Of a DNA stretch of 64,000 nt, positions 52,387 to 64,000 are shown one piece after another. Both the position numbers and the translations under genes were made by a program. The stretch is from an uncultured Synergistales bacterium (GTDB taxonomy: Bacteria > Synergistota > Synergistia > Synergistales > Aminobacteriaceae): NCBI GenBank assembly GCA_905235395.1, contig CAJOLN010000001.1:567-64566 (forward strand), in the 5' to 3' direction. The notes under the pieces are model-generated. The model had not been told where the DNA came from. It was given only the letters and a program-made list of their open reading frames with translations, and did not search any database. Each line of letters opens with the position of its first letter. Within the stretch, counting starts at the first letter, position 1.

Positions 52387-53148
52387 ATGATGAAAAAAAT
52401 TTTGGCATTGATGCTCGTCATCGCTTCAGCTTCAATGTGCTGGGCAGGCGTTGAGAAACTTGAAGATCTTAGGACAGCGAAGATAGGTTTGCTGTCAGGA
52501 TCATCGACTGAGGTAACAATTCACGAATTCCTTGACGGGAAAACAGAGAACGTTTCAGAATATGAAACATTTGCGAGCCTGATCAATGCACTCAAAGAGG
52601 GAAAGATCGATGCGGCAGTTATGGATTTATCTCCGGCAACATATTTTGCGAAGGAAGACAAAGCAATTAAAATTCTCGATCAGTTTTTGAAGAATGAGGA
52701 CTACGGAATAGCATTCAAGAAGGGTAACCCATTGAAGGCAGAAGTTGAAAAGGCACTTTCTGAAATCAAAGCAGATGGCACACTTTCATCAATCATAGCG
52801 AAATACAGAACAGATTATGTTGACCCAGAGGCAATAGATTACAACCTGGAAGCAAAGAACGGTTATTTGTGGATGGGCTGTGATGCGGCATTTCCTCCGT
52901 ATGATATAAAGACAGCTTACGGTTTTGTAGGCGTTGATATTGAGATATGTGCTGCAATTGCAAAAAAGTTAGACAGGACATTAATTGTTGCTGATTATAC
53001 GTTTAAGACACTTCCAATGGCACTCAATGACGGACGTATTGATATGATATGTTCAGCATTCAGGATAACTGATGAGCGTAAAACTACGATGGACTTCACA
53101 GAAGCATATGCGTCAGATTTTGAAGCAGTAGTTGTGCTCAGTAAGTAG
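52387..53148 (+). CDS. Family-3 solute-binding protein with circularly permuted domain order
   Basis: Has a signal peptide. LEDLRTAKIGLLSGSS...LKEGKIDAAVMD...EDYGIAFKKGNPL...IKADGTLSSIIAKY (normally the C-terminal half) comes first. GCDAAFPPYDIK...FVGVDIEICAAIAKKL...LNDGRIDMICSAFRITDERKTTMDFTEAY (normally the N-terminal half) comes second. Confidence 0.7.
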   Translation: MMKKILALMLVIASASMCWAGVEKLEDLRTAKIGLLSGSSTEVTIHEFLDGKTENVSEYETFASLINALKEGKIDAAVMDLSPATYFAKEDKAIKILDQFLKNEDYGIAFKKGNPLKAEVEKALSEIKADGTLSSIIAKYRTDYVDPEAIDYNLEAKNGYLWMGCDAAFPPYDIKTAYGFVGVDIEICAAIAKKLDRTLIVADYTFKTLPMALNDGRIDMICSAFRITDERKTTMDFTEAYASDFEAVVVLSK

Positions 53149-57683: not shown

Positions 57684-60137
57684 ATGAAAAAATTTGCAAC
57701 ACTAATATTCATTTATGCTCTGTTCATCTCTTCGTCTCATGCAGAAGTTAGTATAAACGCGCTGAATTTTCCAGATGAAACATTCAGGAATTCAATCAAA
57801 CAGCGAGACAGCAACAATGACAATATACTTAGTGATTCAGAAATTGCACTTGTGGATATAATTAACGTATCAGGAACAGGAGTAAAATCTCTTCAGGGCA
57901 TAGAAAATTTCACGTCATTGAAGACGCTTTACTGCGACAAAAATAATCTTGAGAATCTGAACGTCAGCAAAAACACAAAACTTGAATCGCTGATATGTTC
58001 AGAGAACTCAATTTCATCACTGAACACATCAAACCTGAACAATTTATCGCGTCTATGGTGCTGGAATAACAATCTGACGAATCTGAATCTCAATGACAAT
58101 ATCAATCTTAGTTCACTGAGAGCAGACAATAATCTTCTGAGTGATATTGACTTCACGAATCAGCTTAATCTTGCAGAACTCTCGCTGAAAGGTAATAACA
58201 TAACAAGTTCAGGAGTCTTAGAGAGCATATCCTCATTCAAACAGTCAGGAAACTCTGTAACGTTCAACAACGTATCAGAATACAATAACATTCTTCCTGA
58301 CAGCGTGAAGGGGTATGCATCTGACGGCACACTTCTGAATCTTTTATCATTCGGAAATGGCACAGCAGAATTTGAATCAGCTCCCTCAATTGTGAGCTAT
58401 GAATATGATACAGGAATCGATTCACTGACGCTGAAATCTACATCAGTATCTGAAAATATCAATAACGTGGTCATGACTGACAACGGATTATTTTCAGGCG
58501 TAACAGAAGAAGGTGTAACATCATGGAAGGGAATTCCATTCGCAAAGGCACCTGTAGGCAGCCGCAGGTGGAGAGCACCGGAAGCACCGGAAGACAGCGC
58601 AAAATTGTACATGGCAAATGAATTCGCATACATACCGTTACAGCAAAAATCTCCTGCGAATCCTGACTCTTACTTCAGAACTTCCGAAGATTGTCTGTAT
58701 CTCAATGTCTGGGCATCAAATACATATAGGACAGCTTCGCGTCCCGTAGTCGTATGGATATACGGAGGAGCATATGATTCAGGAGCAACATCGAACCCAT
58801 ACTATGACGGCGCAAATTTCGTGAAGGATAACCCTGACATAATATTTGTTTCAATCGCATACAGGCTCGGCATAATGGGCTTCATAGACCTCTCGAATGT
58901 CATAGGCGGAATAAGTTATACGGACAGCACGAACTTGGGACTGCTTGATATGATGCAGGCACTTCGATGGATTAAGGCGAACATATCATCATTCGGAGGG
59001 GACAGCAATAACATAACGTTAATGGGGCAGTCAGCAGGTGCAGCTTCAATCTCACTGCTTATGACAATGCCGGAGAGCAAAGAACTCTTCCAGAAGGCAA
59101 TACTTGAAAGCGGTGCAGTATCACAGACAACACGAAAAGCTGACGCTCAGAAACTCACAGAGAAATTTCTTCAGGTTACCGGCAAGACAGACATGAACGG
59201 CTTGAATTCACTGACCGTTGATGAACTCAATGATGCGATTGACGCTCTTGGGACATACATAAACTTTCCGATATTAGACGGTCGTATATTATCAACTGAT
59301 ATTTACGGAGCGTTTGAGGAAAACTCAGGGAACTTTGATATGCTCATTGGTTCAAATGCAGATGAGCTTAACTATTGGAAAATTACAATGGGAAAAGAAA
59401 GTTTTGACCAGTTTGTGCCCTATTCGTTCAGAATGACTCGTGAGGCAATAAGTCGTTACAGTTTAGAAGATGCCACATTGGCTGATGATTTCATAAAACT
59501 AGTTGAAGAAGATTACGCGGAATTCTTCAATGATTTGTTGTTCAGAGGCCCTGCAATTGCTCAGGCAGAATCGCATTCAGGAAAGACATTCATGTACTAT
59601 TGGGAATATCCTGTACAGCTAGGTTTAGTAGATGGTCTTGAGGCATGCCATTGTTCAGAGACAGCTTACTTTCTGAATAATGATTATCATCCTGTAACGC
59701 TAGTTGTTGATTCAAATCTCAGAAGAAAATTTAACCCCTTAATCGCAAATTTCATCAGGACAGGTAACCCTTCATCAGGTTCTGTAACATGGCCTGAATA
59801 TAACGATCGGACTAGGCAGACGTTCATAATAACAGAGGCAGGAGACTTCATAACAGATTATGCACCTCTTGATGATCAGCGTGAACTAATCATGCCGTTA
59901 TTGAAATGGGGAGTATCAGGTCGCGAGATGATAACAGGAAATTTTGAAAACGGAATCAGTGTAGACCCTGATGCGTCACAAAAATCAAAACCTGACCCAG
60001 ACATCGAACCTGATCCGGACAATAGAGACAATGAAGGTATTGCAAGAAGTTCCGGCGGAGGAGGCTGCAATTCTGGAATGTCATTCATGAATGCATTTGC
60101 TCTCGTGATGTTCATGATGTGGAAAAAGAAATCTTAA
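57684..60137 (+). CDS. Surface protein: LRR domain fused to a type-B carboxylesterase, with a Synerg-CTERM-like tail
   Basis: A signal peptide and about seven 22-aa leucine-rich repeats (LxxLxCxxNxLxxLNxSxNxx). Then GIPFAKAPVGSRRWRAPE, EDCLYLNVW and GQSAGAAS esterase motifs. The C-terminus is SSGGGGC plus a hydrophobic helix plus KKKS. Confidence 0.8.
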   Translation: MKKFATLIFIYALFISSSHAEVSINALNFPDETFRNSIKQRDSNNDNILSDSEIALVDIINVSGTGVKSLQGIENFTSLKTLYCDKNNLENLNVSKNTKLESLICSENSISSLNTSNLNNLSRLWCWNNNLTNLNLNDNINLSSLRADNNLLSDIDFTNQLNLAELSLKGNNITSSGVLESISSFKQSGNSVTFNNVSEYNNILPDSVKGYASDGTLLNLLSFGNGTAEFESAPSIVSYEYDTGIDSLTLKSTSVSENINNVVMTDNGLFSGVTEEGVTSWKGIPFAKAPVGSRRWRAPEAPEDSAKLYMANEFAYIPLQQKSPANPDSYFRTSEDCLYLNVWASNTYRTASRPVVVWIYGGAYDSGATSNPYYDGANFVKDNPDIIFVSIAYRLGIMGFIDLSNVIGGISYTDSTNLGLLDMMQALRWIKANISSFGGDSNNITLMGQSAGAASISLLMTMPESKELFQKAILESGAVSQTTRKADAQKLTEKFLQVTGKTDMNGLNSLTVDELNDAIDALGTYINFPILDGRILSTDIYGAFEENSGNFDMLIGSNADELNYWKITMGKESFDQFVPYSFRMTREAISRYSLEDATLADDFIKLVEEDYAEFFNDLLFRGPAIAQAESHSGKTFMYYWEYPVQLGLVDGLEACHCSETAYFLNNDYHPVTLVVDSNLRRKFNPLIANFIRTGNPSSGSVTWPEYNDRTRQTFIITEAGDFITDYAPLDDQRELIMPLLKWGVSGREMITGNFENGISVDPDASQKSKPDPDIEPDPDNRDNEGIARSSGGGGCNSGMSFMNAFALVMFMMWKKKS

Positions 60138-60148
60138 AACAAAATGTA

Positions 60149-60188
60149 ATTAGAGGTTGTGTAAAAATCACAGCCTCTAATTTTTTTT
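60149..60188 (+). terminator. Intrinsic terminator
   Basis: Stem ATTAGAGGTTGTG / CACAGCCTCTAAT followed by a run of 8 T. Confidence 0.75.
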
Positions 60189-60239
60189 GCACTCTCTGCT
60201 ATACTTTCACGAAATATAAAGAAAGGAAACAAAGAAGAA

Positions 60240-61757
60240 ATGCTTTTAGGTGCATTAGCAGGAGACATAATAGGCAGTCCTTATGAGTTCAAGCGCAATA
60301 ACATCAAGTCTACGGAATTTCCTCTAATATCAGAACGTTCACGCTTCACTGATGATTCAGTGATGACAATGGCAATTGCTCATGCATTAACGAAATGGAA
60401 GAAGGGCGATGAAATTTACGAATCAGAATTTGAAGACGCAGTTAAAGAATCAATGCTTGAATTCGGCAGAACGTATCCATATGTAGGTTACGGCTTTAAA
60501 TTCGCAAAATGGTTAGGCTCAAGAGACCCTCAGCCATATGGGAGCTTCGGCAATGGTTCAGCAATGAGAGTTTCACCAGTTGCATGGTACTTCGATGACT
60601 TAGAGACAGTTGAAAGATTCGCGGCGGCATCAGCGAGACCCTCACACAATCACCCTGAAGGCATTAAAGGTGCACAGGCAACAGCGGCAGCAATCTTCTT
60701 GGCCAGAACAGGAAAATCAAAGGCAGACATTAAAAGCTATATATCAATCAGATACGGCTATGATTTGAATCGAACACTTGATGAGATTCGACCTGATTAT
60801 GAATTTGATGCAACGTGTCAGGGGAGCGTACCAGAGGCAATGATTGCGTTCCTTGAAGGAAATGATTTCGAGGACACAATTAGAAAGGCAGTATCAATCG
60901 GAGGAGATTCAGATACGATTGCGGCAATTGCAGGTTCAATAGCACAGGGCATGTACGGAATACCAGACGAAATTGAACAGCAGGTTCTTCCTGTTCTTGA
61001 TGAGTTCATGACTGATGAGCTTAAACGCTGGGACAATGCATTGAACGCAAAAGCTGAAGACGAATCACCTCTTGAAAAAATTAAAAACGGAATCACTGAA
61101 ATGGTATTCATTCTCGACAGAAGCGGATCAATGGCTGGTCTTGAAAATGATACGATAGGCGGCTTCAATTCCATGATTGAGAAACAGAAAGCAGAACCAG
61201 GTGAAGCATATGTATCTACAGTTCTGTTTGATGACAGGCATGAAGTCTTACATAACAGAGTGAAGCTGAGTGAAATTCATAAATTGACGGAAAAAGATTA
61301 CTGGGTGAGAGGCTCTACAGCTTTACATGACGCGATTGGCAGAGCGGTAAATCATATCGTGAATGTGTACAGGCATTCCAAACCTGAAGACGTTCCGGAA
61401 AAGACGGTATTCACGATAATCACTGACGGATTTGAAAACGCAAGTCGTCAGTATTCAGGCCGTGACATAAAACGCATGATTGAACACGAAAAAGCAAAAT
61501 ACGGCTGGGAATTCCTGTTCATCGGAGCAAATATCGATGCAATCACTACGGCTGAACATCTCGGTATCGACAGAAGCAGGGCAGTTAATTACATGGCAGA
61601 CAGTCAGGGAACAGGCGCAGTATTCAGAAGTGTGAACAGGGCCATGTACAACATGAGGTATGAAGCAAGCATATCGGACGACTGGTGTGAGGAAATTAAT
61701 GAAGATTACACTTCAAGGAGTAAGCCTTCCTTCACCGAAGATATATCTGAAAACTAA
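60240..61757 (+). CDS. ADP-ribosylglycohydrolase domain fused to a von Willebrand factor A domain
   Basis: The N-terminal 270 aa carry GALAGDIIGSPYEF, FTDDSVMT, GNGSAMR and GGDSDTIAAIAGS (ARH family). The C-terminus carries VFILDRSGSM (MIDAS DxSxS), GSTALHDA and IITDGFEN. Confidence 0.75.
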   Translation: MLLGALAGDIIGSPYEFKRNNIKSTEFPLISERSRFTDDSVMTMAIAHALTKWKKGDEIYESEFEDAVKESMLEFGRTYPYVGYGFKFAKWLGSRDPQPYGSFGNGSAMRVSPVAWYFDDLETVERFAAASARPSHNHPEGIKGAQATAAAIFLARTGKSKADIKSYISIRYGYDLNRTLDEIRPDYEFDATCQGSVPEAMIAFLEGNDFEDTIRKAVSIGGDSDTIAAIAGSIAQGMYGIPDEIEQQVLPVLDEFMTDELKRWDNALNAKAEDESPLEKIKNGITEMVFILDRSGSMAGLENDTIGGFNSMIEKQKAEPGEAYVSTVLFDDRHEVLHNRVKLSEIHKLTEKDYWVRGSTALHDAIGRAVNHIVNVYRHSKPEDVPEKTVFTIITDGFENASRQYSGRDIKRMIEHEKAKYGWEFLFIGANIDAITTAEHLGIDRSRAVNYMADSQGTGAVFRSVNRAMYNMRYEASISDDWCEEINEDYTSRSKPSFTEDISEN

Positions 61758-61810
61758 ATTAGCACACAAAAGAGGCCGGTAGATTTTTTCCTATCAGCCT
61801 CAGATTATTT

Positions 61811-62143
61811 TTACTGAAGATGTGCTTCTTCCGTCTTTATCTCCCAGTGAATCAGGAACGTCAATGCGCCTCTCAGAACGATAACTGCTCCAAGTATTGC
61901 AAGTTCACTCCATTCACGAACAATTACTGTCCTCAAAACCTCGCCGCCAAGTTTGAATTCAAGTGCAAGCGCAATCCCTTTCGCAAGTATCAGCCTGACG
62001 TTAGTATCACGCTTAATACATGCCCATATGCTTTTTACTGTCGTCAGCAGAATCGTACATACCCCAGCAAATTCAAGAAGCAATATCCCCGACTGAACAA
62101 GAAAATGAAAAATTTCATCAACCTGATTCAAAAGCTCATGCAT
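61811..62143 (-). CDS. DUF1622 family small membrane protein
   Basis: 110 aa with two or three TM helices and LALEFKLGGEVLRT and VIVLRGALTFLIHWE motifs. Confidence 0.6.
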   Translation of the reverse strand: MHELLNQVDEIFHFLVQSGILLLEFAGVCTILLTTVKSIWACIKRDTNVRLILAKGIALALEFKLGGEVLRTVIVREWSELAILGAVIVLRGALTFLIHWEIKTEEAHLQ

Positions 62144-62161
62144 ACATAAACACCTCCGAAA

Positions 62162-62740
62162 TTATTTCATGATTTGATATGCACACCACAATAATATAAT
62201 TCCCATGATGATATTAAACGGCCTGTAGTATCTCGTCAGGAACTTCTGCAATATCCCTCCAACTGCTCCCCACATGCACCAGCTCACCGAACTTATCGAT
62301 AAGATGAATGCCGCATGAAGAATCATGTCATAGAGACCTGCCTCTGAGGGAATGATGTACGCCGTGAATATCGTGATGAGATAGAGAATGACCTTCACGT
62401 TTGAGACCGCAAGAATGAAACCAGACGTGAAACTTATCGGATGCGAATCTAAATTTGATTGTACACTGAAGACGATATGATATGCAAGCCAGATTATATA
62501 TGCCGCTCCGACATAGCGAAGATATTTTACGAGTTCAGGAACATAAACGGAGAGTTCATGACAGAATAATAGAACAGCAACTATGAGACATGAGAAGCCT
62601 GCGAAAATTCCGAAAATGACATTGCGAGCTTTAGACCATCCGGCAGTACTCACGGAATATAACGACATTAAATTATTCGGGCCTGGTGTGAAAGTTGTGA
62701 TGAGAGCGTAGGGAAGATATGAGAGAAGAACATCAAGCAT
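62162..62740 (-). CDS. LysE/RhtB family amino-acid exporter
   Basis: 192 aa, six TM helices, N-terminal TPGPNN motif. Confidence 0.75.
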   Translation of the reverse strand: MLDVLLSYLPYALITTFTPGPNNLMSLYSVSTAGWSKARNVIFGIFAGFSCLIVAVLLFCHELSVYVPELVKYLRYVGAAYIIWLAYHIVFSVQSNLDSHPISFTSGFILAVSNVKVILYLITIFTAYIIPSEAGLYDMILHAAFILSISSVSWCMWGAVGGILQKFLTRYYRPFNIIMGIILLWCAYQIMK

Positions 62741-62871
62741 TGAGATTAAAAGCCTCCTGAGAAAAAAATTTTCATGTAACTATAGCACATAAATTTGCAT
62801 ATTGATTTAGTGTGTAATTCGTGGCATAATGACCACATCAATAAATTCCAAAACATGAGGTGAAACAGTAA

Positions 62872-62943
62872 ATGCATAGCGTCAATCATAATAATGCACT
62901 CATCATGAAGGCACTATGCTGTTGTTGTTGTTTCACATTCTGA
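62872..62943 (+). promoter_or_regulatory. Upstream ORF with five consecutive Cys codons, a candidate cysK leader peptide
   Basis: GAGGTG lies 8 nt before the ATG. The translation is MHSVNHNNALIMKALCCCCCFTF-stop, and it ends 102 nt before the cysK ATG. Confidence 0.5.
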
Positions 62944-63045
62944 TTCTTTCACGTTAATTTTTCACGCGCAAATTTAAATCACAAAATCGTATCCTGATTC
63001 ATTCAGGTATACACGCACATATATACAATAAGGAGAGATATTAAG

Positions 63046-63978
63046 ATGTCAAAGATTTACACGTCAATTGATCAGCTAATCGGGCGCACACCACTGCTTG
63101 AACTTTCACACATTGAGAAACATTTTGACCTGAAGGCAAAAGTGCTCGCAAAACTTGAATACTTCAATCCGGCAGGAAGCGTTAAAGACAGAATCGCGAA
63201 GGCCATGATTGATGATGCAGAGGCAGCAGGTCTTCTCAAACCGGGCAGTGTGATCATTGAACCTACAAGCGGCAATACAGGAATCGGATTGTCATCGGTG
63301 GCAGCAGCACGAGGTTACAGAATCATAATCGTAATGCCCGAAACGATGTCGATAGAACGCAGACAGCTCATGAAAGCATACGGAGCAGAATTAGTTCTGA
63401 CGGAAGGCAGCAAGGGAATGAAAGGAGCAATTGAGAAAGCCTCAGAACTTGCCGCAGAGATACCTGACAGTTTCATAGCTGGTCAGTTTGTGAATCCCTC
63501 GAACCCTAAGATTCATCGTGAGACTACAGGCCCTGAAATCTGGAATGATACAGACGGATTCGTTGATGTGTTCATTGCAGGCGTAGGAACAGGAGGAACA
63601 TTGACAGGTACAGGCGAATATCTGAAGTCGAGAAATCCGAATGTGAAGATTATTGCAGTTGAGCCTTTTGGATCACCAGTTCTGTCTGCGGGACGTTCAG
63701 GTTCACATAAGATTCAGGGAATTGGGCCGGGATTCATTCCTGAAGTGCTGAACACGAGAATTTACGATGAGATTATCACAGTTCATGATGAAGATGCATT
63801 TGCAACCGGAAAATTAATCGGACGCATTGAAGGTTTCCTTGTCGGAATATCATCGGGTGCAGCAGCATTTGCGGCAATCGAAGTTGCGAAGAGACCAGAG
63901 AATGCCGGAAAGAACATCGTTGTGATTTTGCCGGATACAGGAGAGCGTTATCTTTCAACAACTATGTTTTCAGAATAG
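63046..63978 (+). CDS. cysK: Cysteine synthase A (O-acetylserine sulfhydrylase)
   Basis: NPAGSVKDR (PLP lysine), TSGNTGIGL and [10 protein letters not shown] motifs; 310 aa. Confidence 0.92.
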
Positions 63979-64000
63979 AAGCATGAATATAGGCGAAGCA

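Follow-up and report, generated by a model that had tools for sequence, protein, structure and literature searches.

Introduction

Control of cysteine genes by short open reading frames (sORFs) rich in cysteine codons has been described or predicted in several bacterial groups. In Mycobacterium smegmatis, cysteine operons are headed by poly-cysteine leaderless sORFs that attenuate them at the level of translation (Canestrari et al. 2020, bioRxiv 10.1101/834739; Mol Microbiol 114:93), a finding still cited as current knowledge in 2026, and in the literature searched, experimental proof that stalling on Cys codons controls cysteine biosynthesis was found for mycobacteria only. Cys leader peptides without a terminator were predicted before cys/cbs operons in Mycobacterium, Propionibacterium acnes and Bifidobacterium longum, where the pyrimidine-rich spacer led to the suggestion of Rho-dependent attenuation similar to that of tna (Seliverstov et al. 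2005, PMC1262725), whereas the uORFC-8-2 motif upstream of cysS in Rhodobacterales carries Cys codons at about codons 14-15 within its first stem and is followed by a terminator (Brewer et al. 2021, PMC8632094). Here we studied a 64,000-nt stretch (in the following the window) of contig CAJOLN010000001.1 from an uncultured Synergistales bacterium, in which the 305-nt intergenic region 62741-63045 forms the leader of a cysK-cysE operon and contains a 23-codon upstream ORF (uORF) with five Cys codons in a row. A sequence-only reading of this DNA had proposed the uORF as a Cys-sensing leader peptide and had named polycysteine uORFs from mycobacteria as a precedent; the precedent is real and is the work on M. 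smegmatis cited above.

Our analysis makes it likely that the uORF is a Cys-sensing leader ORF, as judged from its sequence and conservation, and probable that the whole region acts as a ribosome-mediated, cysteinyl-tRNA-sensing attenuator of cysK-cysE in this rumen/gut Synergistaceae bacterium, for which a Rho-dependent output is the favoured version. The element resembles the known Cys leaders and yet is a member of none of them, being led by a Shine-Dalgarno sequence (SD), free of a terminator, equipped with a predicted helix to its own initiation region and located in Synergistota. No description of this Synergistota element was found in the literature searched.

Results

A poly-cysteine uORF with its own promoter and ribosome binding site precedes cysK

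The cysteine synthase A gene cysK (63046-63978, plus strand; PF00291; TIGR01139 with 453 bits against a cut-off of 351) is the first gene of cysK-cysE, and a cysE-like gene begins just beyond the end of the window; on longer contigs of the same species, a serine O-acetyltransferase gene follows 4 nt after cysK. Upstream of cysK, the uORF (62872-62943, plus strand) runs from an ATG start over 23 codons to a TGA stop and encodes MHSVNHNNALIMKALCCCCCFTF. It is present as the sequence-only reading had described it, including the Cys run TGC TGT TGT TGT TGT at 62917-62931, whose codons are the presumed sensing codons. From the base composition, a TGY triplet (Y, pyrimidine) is expected with a probability of about 0.03 per codon and five in tandem with about 2e-8 per position, and nowhere else in the 64 kb do more than three TGY triplets follow one another directly. 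Other short ORFs with Cys runs in the window were rejected as out-of-frame strings within genes or as lacking context, e.g., 52947-52994, which lies inside the ORF 52387-53148.

A consensus scan identified a sigma-70-type promoter for the leader at 62802-62830 (plus strand), consisting of the -35 element TTGATT (62802-62807), a 17-bp spacer and the extended -10 element TGgCATAAT (62822-62830). The block ATTGATTTAG...TTCGTGGCATAAT is conserved in all uORF-bearing relatives. Transcription is predicted to start near 62837, giving a leader of about 210 nt, and as this start lies about 35 nt upstream of the uORF ATG, the uORF would be SD-led and not leaderless. The SD GAGGTG (62857-62862) reported earlier is correct, the reported 8-nt spacer is not: the gap to the ATG is 9 nt, and 8 nt only if the SD is read as GAGGTGA. 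The SD and its flank occupy 62857-62868 (plus strand), where AGGTGAAACAG (62858-62868) contains the motif GTGAAA and is found exactly once in the 64-kb window. Across 12 leader variants, 11 nt of this flank, AGGTGAAACA(G/A), are invariant, and an invariant stretch of this length is, judged by sequence, more than an SD requires.

The absence of T-box features, as claimed before, agrees with the Rfam search, in which no T-box or S-box match was obtained even at E<=10. Covariance models run over 60000-64000 at this threshold returned only chance matches to snoRNAs and CRISPR repeats, far below the gathering scores; one of them, a weak snoRNA match at 60142-60254 on the minus strand, is spurious and corresponds to a terminator hairpin (60148-60182).

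Frame, length and Cys codons of the uORF are conserved upstream of cysK

The named best matches of CysK belong to Synergistaceae, many of them from rumen and gut metagenome assemblies, and metagenome assemblies appear to be the sole source from which these organisms are known. The sample comprised 12 CysK clusters, namely the window's own and eleven fetched at 84-92% identity to the window CysK, and in 11 of the 12 the uORF was found at the same place. The 12 distinct leader variants compared here come from the 11 uORF-bearing clusters, from locus L127, which was found by a pattern scan, and from L084, a second variant within one cluster. Two contigs with identical CysK were uninformative, because their leaders are almost identical. 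The pattern scan of metagenomes (AGGTGAAACAG, a gap of 38-56 nt, then TGYTGYTGY) returned 120 stretches, almost all of them chance matches, with L127 as the one new family member, again upstream of cysK; among these 120 stretches, no target gene other than cysK was found for members of the family.

In all 12 variants the uORF has 22-24 codons, the first Cys stands at codon 15-18 and the stop follows 7-9 codons after the first Cys, with 3-5 Cys codons per uORF in the relatives. None of the 12 variants interrupts frame 0, and the other two frames are stopped in nearly all. Variation at the Cys codons is between TGT and TGC and thus synonymous, apart from one Phe codon in two lineages, which falls among the first three Cys positions, and the sole indel within the uORF measures exactly one codon. 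The remaining peptide diverges almost completely, e.g., MHSVNHNNALIMKAL vs. MTDREIFTATFEAV vs. VYHYIFVSAIHEVL, and within the close group all three codon positions vary (8, 7 and 11 sites at positions 1, 2 and 3). The leader peptides of the relatives read MHSVNYSNAVIMKALCCCCCLTF (L083 and L089), MHRVSYSNAVIMKALCCCCCLTF (L084), MHSVNYKNLSIVEVLCCCCCLTF (L087), MHSVKNINAVIMKALCCCCCPVF (L090), MHNHKPFNLIIKASCCCCSFGL (L092), MHNMRTLNAKFEAVCCCCPFTF (L127), MTDREIFTATFEAVCCCRPLTL (L099), VYHYIFVSAIHEVLCCCRHTSL (L100), MHSYSFLAAYYEVVCFCCRFCTL (L222), MHNNLSYAARSEAVCFCCPLCTL (L226) and MLNRNYETLKAIHEGFVCCCRFPF (L223). A kept frame, length and set of Cys codons together with a drifting remainder is the signature of a leader ORF, for which translation matters and the product does not. 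The conservation in related genomes, which had been named as a check on the original proposal, thus came out in favour of the proposed leader ORF, which would sense cysteine for cysK through its Cys codons.

The Cys codons are predicted to pair with the uORF initiation region

The minimum-free-energy fold places the uORF in a hairpin, P1 (62857-62940, plus strand; -23.7 kcal/mol). Its 5' arm (62857-62883) consists of the uORF SD, the AUG and the first codons and includes the invariant flank GGUGAAACAG, which lies at the base of the arm, while the 3' arm (62910-62940) spans codons 13-23 and thereby the Cys run. The 12-bp helix noted before, in which GTGAAACAGTAA (62860-62871) pairs with TTGTTGTTTCAC (62925-62936) with two G-U pairs, is correct and forms only the base of this longer hairpin. 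The same architecture is predicted for the segment from SD to stop in 12 of 12 variants, with 17-26 pairs and -19 to -29 kcal/mol, and in the nine variants tested against dinucleotide shuffles the z-scores ranged from -1.3 to -4.5. In the alignment fold, one P1 pair is compensatory and appears as U-A, U-G or C-G across variants, and AACAG:CUGUU reads AACAA:UUGUU in L223, as read off the fold. P1 is thus well supported by its consistency and by the predicted thermodynamics, its formal covariation is weak and it is not proven; on balance, we are slightly inclined to regard it as part of the switch.

The region around the first Cys codon offers a further frame. The base before this codon is A or G in all variants, which creates an ATG or GTG in the +1 frame (62914-62955 in the window), and with an invariant AGG located 7-8 nt upstream, a poly-Leu ORF overlapping the first Cys codon could begin there (MLLLLFHILILSR followed by a stop in the window). 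This ORF was dropped because its length is not conserved (MLLL followed by a stop in L092), and the invariant AGG is explained more simply by [K/E][A/V] codons plus P1 pairing.

A G-poor spacer with TTTCAC repeats and without a terminator follows the uORF

Between the uORF stop and the cysK SD lies a spacer of 86 nt (62944-63029, plus strand) with 9% G and 22% C, which is a candidate Rho-loading region. Only 0.4% of all 85-nt windows in the 64-kb window, and 3% of the intergenic ones, have a G content as low as this, and C/G ratios of 1.3-10 were obtained for the eight variants measured, although the spacer sequence itself is hard to align. The hexamer TTTCAC, complementary to the GTGAAA of the uORF SD flank, occurs at 62931-62936 within the uORF and at 62947-62952 and 62960-62965 after its stop (all plus strand); the recurrence had been reported correctly for 62931 and 62947, and the third copy starts at 62960 instead of 62959. 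Estimated from the window-wide rate, about 0.02 copies are expected per 35-nt stretch, compared with three observed. Among the relatives, TTTCAC is the most widely shared hexamer of the spacer, present in 8 of 11 lineages at varying positions, where shuffling predicts about 0.05 copies in each spacer.

About 20 nt upstream of the cysK SD, the spacer contains a second hairpin, P2 (62989-63012, plus strand; GTATCCTGA-TTCAT-TCAGG(T)ATAC, with the 3' arm TCAGGTATAC). In most relatives the CCUGA/UCAGG stem recurs with varying loops; L223 has GUCUG/CGGAC instead, and L083/L084 and L100 lack the stem. P2 lacks a U-tract in the window, and in the relatives' leaders, read by eye, no hairpin is followed by a clear U-run. 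In line with the earlier statement that no canonical terminator precedes cysK, a terminator scan returned no terminator-like site in 62100-64000. This absence is meaningful because the genome has canonical terminators elsewhere within the same 20 kb: for example, a textbook intrinsic terminator with a 14-bp stem and T7 is located at 60148-60182, right after the gene for an 817-aa leucine-rich-repeat (LRR)/carboxylesterase protein.

Sequestration of the cysK SD is not consistently predicted

The cysK ribosome binding site (RBS) AAGGAGAG (63030-63037, plus strand; start codon 63046-63048) is conserved in the relatives. In the minimum-free-energy fold of the window, GGAGAGAU.AUUA in the cysK initiation region is bound to UGAUUCUUUC, which lies at the uORF stop, and a ribosome placed at this stop increases the accessibility of the cysK SD in the partition function from 0.33 to 0.74. 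Over the variants, the partition functions showed no consistent opening of the SD with a ribosome on the Cys codons or on the stop codon. For about half of the lineages, the cysK SD finds its most likely partner in the end of the uORF or in the first 20 nt after it; L083/L084 have a local element in this role, and for L090 an open SD is predicted. Across 11 lineages, the complementarity of the uORF end to the cysK initiation region was not above that of shuffles (mean z +0.37; duplexes of -3 to -10 kcal/mol), nor was that of the whole spacer, and no conserved sequestering partner for the cysK SD was found among the relatives. These accessibility and complementarity tests, which are model-based, weaken the version of the read-out in which the SD is sequestered.

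Cys-rich uORFs of other kinds precede cysK in further groups

Of 80 cysK loci surveyed in other species, three have a Cys-rich uORF of another type, two in metagenome-assembled genomes (MAGs) of Oscillospiraceae, L008 (MRRAIVNRMMCCDMCCERRVCFAIPI, 2722-2848) and L013 (MQKIFYIGMICCDARCENRVNCVIPI, 2758-2900), and one in Eggerthellaceae, L046 (MKSKLNSVCCECCMCACVAVPAIPETI, 2726-2863). These uORFs have 26-27 codons with 4-6 Cys codons, a good SD and a canonical intrinsic terminator 20-30 nt past the stop. A near-consensus promoter is found in L046 and, with the upstream sequence read by eye, also in L008 and L013. The sequence just after the stop is complementary, in both L008 and L013, to the uORF SD and also to the 5' arm of the terminator. 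By their sequence, all three leaders look like classical Cys attenuators. They have no match in Rfam, and over seven cysK leaders besides that of the window a Rfam search at a permissive threshold returned nothing relevant.

In the same survey, 8 of the 80 loci contain mini-uORFs 45-75 nt upstream of cysK which end in or contain R-C(-C), each with an SD-like purine run (L013 2918-2944; L031 2921-2938; L072 2906-2944; L003 2885; L074 2897; L032 2896; L047 2904; L008 2910). Their peptides, each followed by a stop, include MFLLKERC, MFKRC, MKIHRKERCCRG, MKMEKHASSVFRC, MKQISSGFRC and others, and by their sequence they may represent another family of Cys-sensing or arrest-type uORFs.

A LysE-family gene is encoded divergently from the leader

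The leader is flanked by a divergent LysE-family gene (62162-62740, minus strand; PF01810), and its synteny with the cysK leader is retained in most uORF-bearing relatives. The top NCBIfam match of this gene is a cysteine/O-acetylserine transporter model (114 bits, below the cut-off of 193), so that by sequence a cysteine/O-acetylserine exporter is possible. On the minus strand, an extended -10-like sequence TGCTATAGT for the LysE-family gene was noted (62779-62790 and 62753-62757), and this -10 is conserved among relatives as TATAGC/TATAAC. Because the predicted promoters would stand back to back, the exporter and cysK-cysE might share a regulator.

Regarding the annotation of cysK itself, the database entry P0001 (419 aa, 722 bits), which originates from a 2.9-kb contig and ranks above the 310-aa CysK proteins, probably reflects a wrongly called start or a fusion upstream of cysK. 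The lengths of several further CysK clusters, 321-349 aa, suggest that gene callers may sometimes extend cysK into the leader.

Discussion

Proposed mechanism

We infer that the uORF is translated, that ribosomes stall on its Cys codons, that Rho takes part and in which direction the regulation runs, and the following model is conditional in each of its steps. Transcription would begin about 35 nt upstream of the 23-codon leader ORF, which would be translated from its strong SD. With plentiful Cys-tRNA(Cys), the ribosome would pass the five Cys codons and depart at the stop; once it is gone, the uORF SD and AUG would pair with the Cys-codon region, so that P1 closes, shuts off further initiation at the uORF and bares the G-poor spacer and the TTTCAC repeats in it. 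At low levels of Cys-tRNA(Cys), the ribosome would stall on the Cys run, a sensing step in keeping with what is established for leader-peptide attenuation; because this run is the 3' arm of P1, the hairpin could not form and the uORF initiation region would stay exposed. The freed 5' arm (GGUGAAA) could then pair with a downstream UUUCAC. The output would be premature Rho-dependent termination in the naked spacer under cysteine-replete conditions, relieved by stalling.

Rho is favoured here because no terminator was found in a genome that uses terminators, because the spacer is G-poor and C-rich, and because of the actinobacterial parallel drawn by Seliverstov et al.; by this analogy a Rho-dependent output is a tentative proposal. 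Similarly tentative is the reading as an attenuator with a new switch geometry, a three-way switch in which stalling would free the GGUGAAA arm, the arm would capture UUUCAC and the Rho-loading (or RNase-sensitive) spacer would thereby be hidden, with the sensor ORF shutting its own translation after one round.

Several observations weigh against this interpretation. The closest GTDB species (L001, CysK 88% identical) and L096-L098 have no uORF, and the P0023 loci are likewise without the leader. This lineage (L001 2930-3000; L096-L098) has the same -35 region, with the ATTTGCATATTG-TTTAGT block in L001, and an untranslated region of about 45 nt; L001 also has a different upstream neighbor. 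The element can therefore be lost or replaced and is not universal in the clade, within which the entire leader was either gained or lost, and by sequence the block that is shared over the -35 and ahead of it could be bound by a transcription factor. Concerning P1, the RNAalifold consensus reaches only -4 kcal/mol with two compensatory pairs, a weakness attributable to the UGY repeats, which permit register slips, and the comparison of cognate with non-cognate arms gave p=0.04 for all variants and 0.18 for the divergent lineages only. The arms are largely conserved sequence, which the SD and the Cys codons could explain. Closing the uORF's own initiation region is moreover an unusual design, and a helix bridging a stalled ribosome is sterically awkward. 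With respect to the spacer, that of L100 measures only 61 nt and is short as a sole Rho-loading site, and the freed 5' arm of P1 was no better in duplex energies and pairing probabilities with the spacers than with shuffled ones; of the tests on this pairing, only the TTTCAC enrichment argues for the alternative helix.

Alternative explanations

Two alternatives keep the sensor and exchange the output. The output could be translational as in the mycobacterial leader Ms5788A, with a sequence at or just after the uORF stop pairing with the cysK SD and a ribosome stalled on the Cys run covering that sequence and so setting the SD free. Among the mechanisms for poly-Cys sORFs it alone has been proven by experiment, and the window fold, the gain in SD accessibility with a ribosome at the stop and the SD partners at or within 20 nt of the uORF end in about half of the lineages agree with it. 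However, a ribosome on the Cys codons, where the stall is expected, does not open the SD consistently, the complementarity of uORF end and spacer to the initiation region stays at the level of shuffles, the local partner in L083/L084 and the open SD in L090 do not fit, and any pyrimidine-rich spacer pairs weakly with an SD, so that we consider a translational output unlikely. Stalled-ribosome mRNA stabilization is established for ermC in Bacillus subtilis, and a comparable output is conceivable for cysK-cysE if the P1 duplex of 17-26 bp were an RNase III-type site or an entry point for decay and if the stall prevented P1 or shielded the 5' region. P1 is the only structure common to all variants and contains the Cys codons, and neither a terminator nor a conserved SD sequestor was found, all of which would suit this explanation; yet P1 is interrupted by internal loops and bulges, and the TTTCAC enrichment and the G-poor spacer would be left unexplained, which makes control of mRNA stability improbable.

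The other two alternatives dispense with the sensor. If the leader were a non-coding structured RNA, with P1 bound by a protein or metabolite, or if a transcription factor at the promoter alone were responsible, the UGY triplets would be kept for pairing with AACAG and the frame would be incidental. Both arms of P1 are indeed conserved at the nucleotide level and the promoter block is strongly conserved, with its -35 side shared with the uORF-less L001. An incidental frame is nevertheless difficult to reconcile with a frame that is open in every variant while the others are closed in nearly all, with start and stop positions that are kept, with an indel of one codon, and with first three Cys positions at which, besides the one Phe codon in two lineages, only one pyrimidine replaces the other. 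The strong and correctly spaced SD, the lack of a Rfam match and the independent Cys-rich uORFs upstream of cysK in other phyla point in the same direction and render a non-coding leader quite improbable. The least probable explanation, to which we attach hardly any weight, is that the uORF encodes a functional Cys-rich micropeptide (metal- or redox-active, or modified) that is co-transcribed with cysK by chance. The ORF, its SD and its length are conserved as this would demand, but within the peptide nothing except the Cys run and the length is conserved, the uORFs hold anywhere from 3 to 5 Cys, hardly any other residue is shared, substitutions hit every codon position, and all examples found are tied to cysK.

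Comparison with known leaders

For the preferred reading, a Cys-sensing leader ORF, the closest counterpart is Ms5788A of the mycobacterial 'Cys ribulon', which likewise is a short ORF with consecutive Cys codons at the 5' end of a cysteine operon without an intrinsic terminator, and for which ribosome pausing at limiting Cys-tRNA and pairing of RNA from the sORF region in the switch are shared features, both of them proposed here. Of the features that define the mycobacterial leaderless sORFs, at least two consecutive Cys codons heading a Cys-related operon are found, whereas the leaderless start is not: the uORF has a 5' untranslated region of about 20-35 nt, given the predicted transcription start, and a strong SD. 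Further differences are the phylum (Synergistota instead of Actinobacteria), the conserved helix, which joins the Cys codons to the ORF's own initiation region and not to the downstream RBS, and the negative tests for sequestration of the downstream RBS, with weak pairing in the window and about half of the lineages. The leaders predicted by Seliverstov et al. share the short ORF ahead of cysteine genes, with a Cys run close to its stop, and the lack of a terminator hairpin; they are known from prediction only, in Actinobacteria and with no conserved hairpin reported, in contrast to the predicted P1 and the repeated TTTCAC described here. In uORFC-8-2, tandem Cys codons occupy a similar position (codons 15-18 in our family) inside the first stem, here P1, but the motif precedes cysS, has two Cys codons and ends in a terminator with a U-run, while the Synergistota element precedes cysK-cysE, has 3-5 Cys codons and no terminator.

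Beyond Cys leaders, the element has in common with trpL, hisL, leuL and thrL an SD-led short ORF, tandem codons for the end product and a hairpin that includes the regulatory codons. As a short ORF with its own RBS, tandem Cys codons, and a conserved frame and codon set with a free remainder, it fits the leader-peptide attenuators in the broad sense, whose response to charged tRNA through stalling it would share. The intrinsic terminator and competing antiterminator of the classical trp/his type were not found, and the partner of the regulatory codons lies upstream, at the uORF's own SD and AUG, not downstream. With tnaC-tnaA and mgtL-mgtA it shares the lack of an intrinsic terminator, and as in these systems ribosome occupancy of the leader ORF would govern the access of Rho to a C-rich, unstructured spacer; the spacer is C-rich, G-poor and, at 86 nt, above the approximately 70 nt or more that characterize tna-like leaders, with L100 falling below this length. 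In contrast to these systems, the stall would result from tRNA starvation and not from an arrest peptide, and Rho dependence is proposed by analogy.

Significance

The usual regulators of cysK in Firmicutes are T-box, S-box or CymR. The occurrence of Cys uORFs before cysK in several groups indicates that ribosome-based cysteine sensing seems to have arisen repeatedly in gut anaerobes. The poly-Cys leader of Synergistota, together with the Oscillospiraceae and Eggerthellaceae versions, would extend the mechanism beyond Actinobacteria and points to repeated, independent invention; should the three-way switch hold true, ribosome-based cysteine sensing would, taken with the terminator-containing Cys leaders and the mini-uORFs ending in R-C before cysK in Clostridia and Eggerthellaceae, be widespread in gut anaerobes and have evolved several times. 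The 23-codon uORF is in addition an unannotated gene missed by gene callers, and its pattern can be used to annotate MAGs from rumen and gut. Finally, the element would offer a compact system of about 200 nt in which to study the read-out of a stalled ribosome where terminator and SD sequestor are both absent, a question already posed by the actinobacterial cys leaders in 2005.

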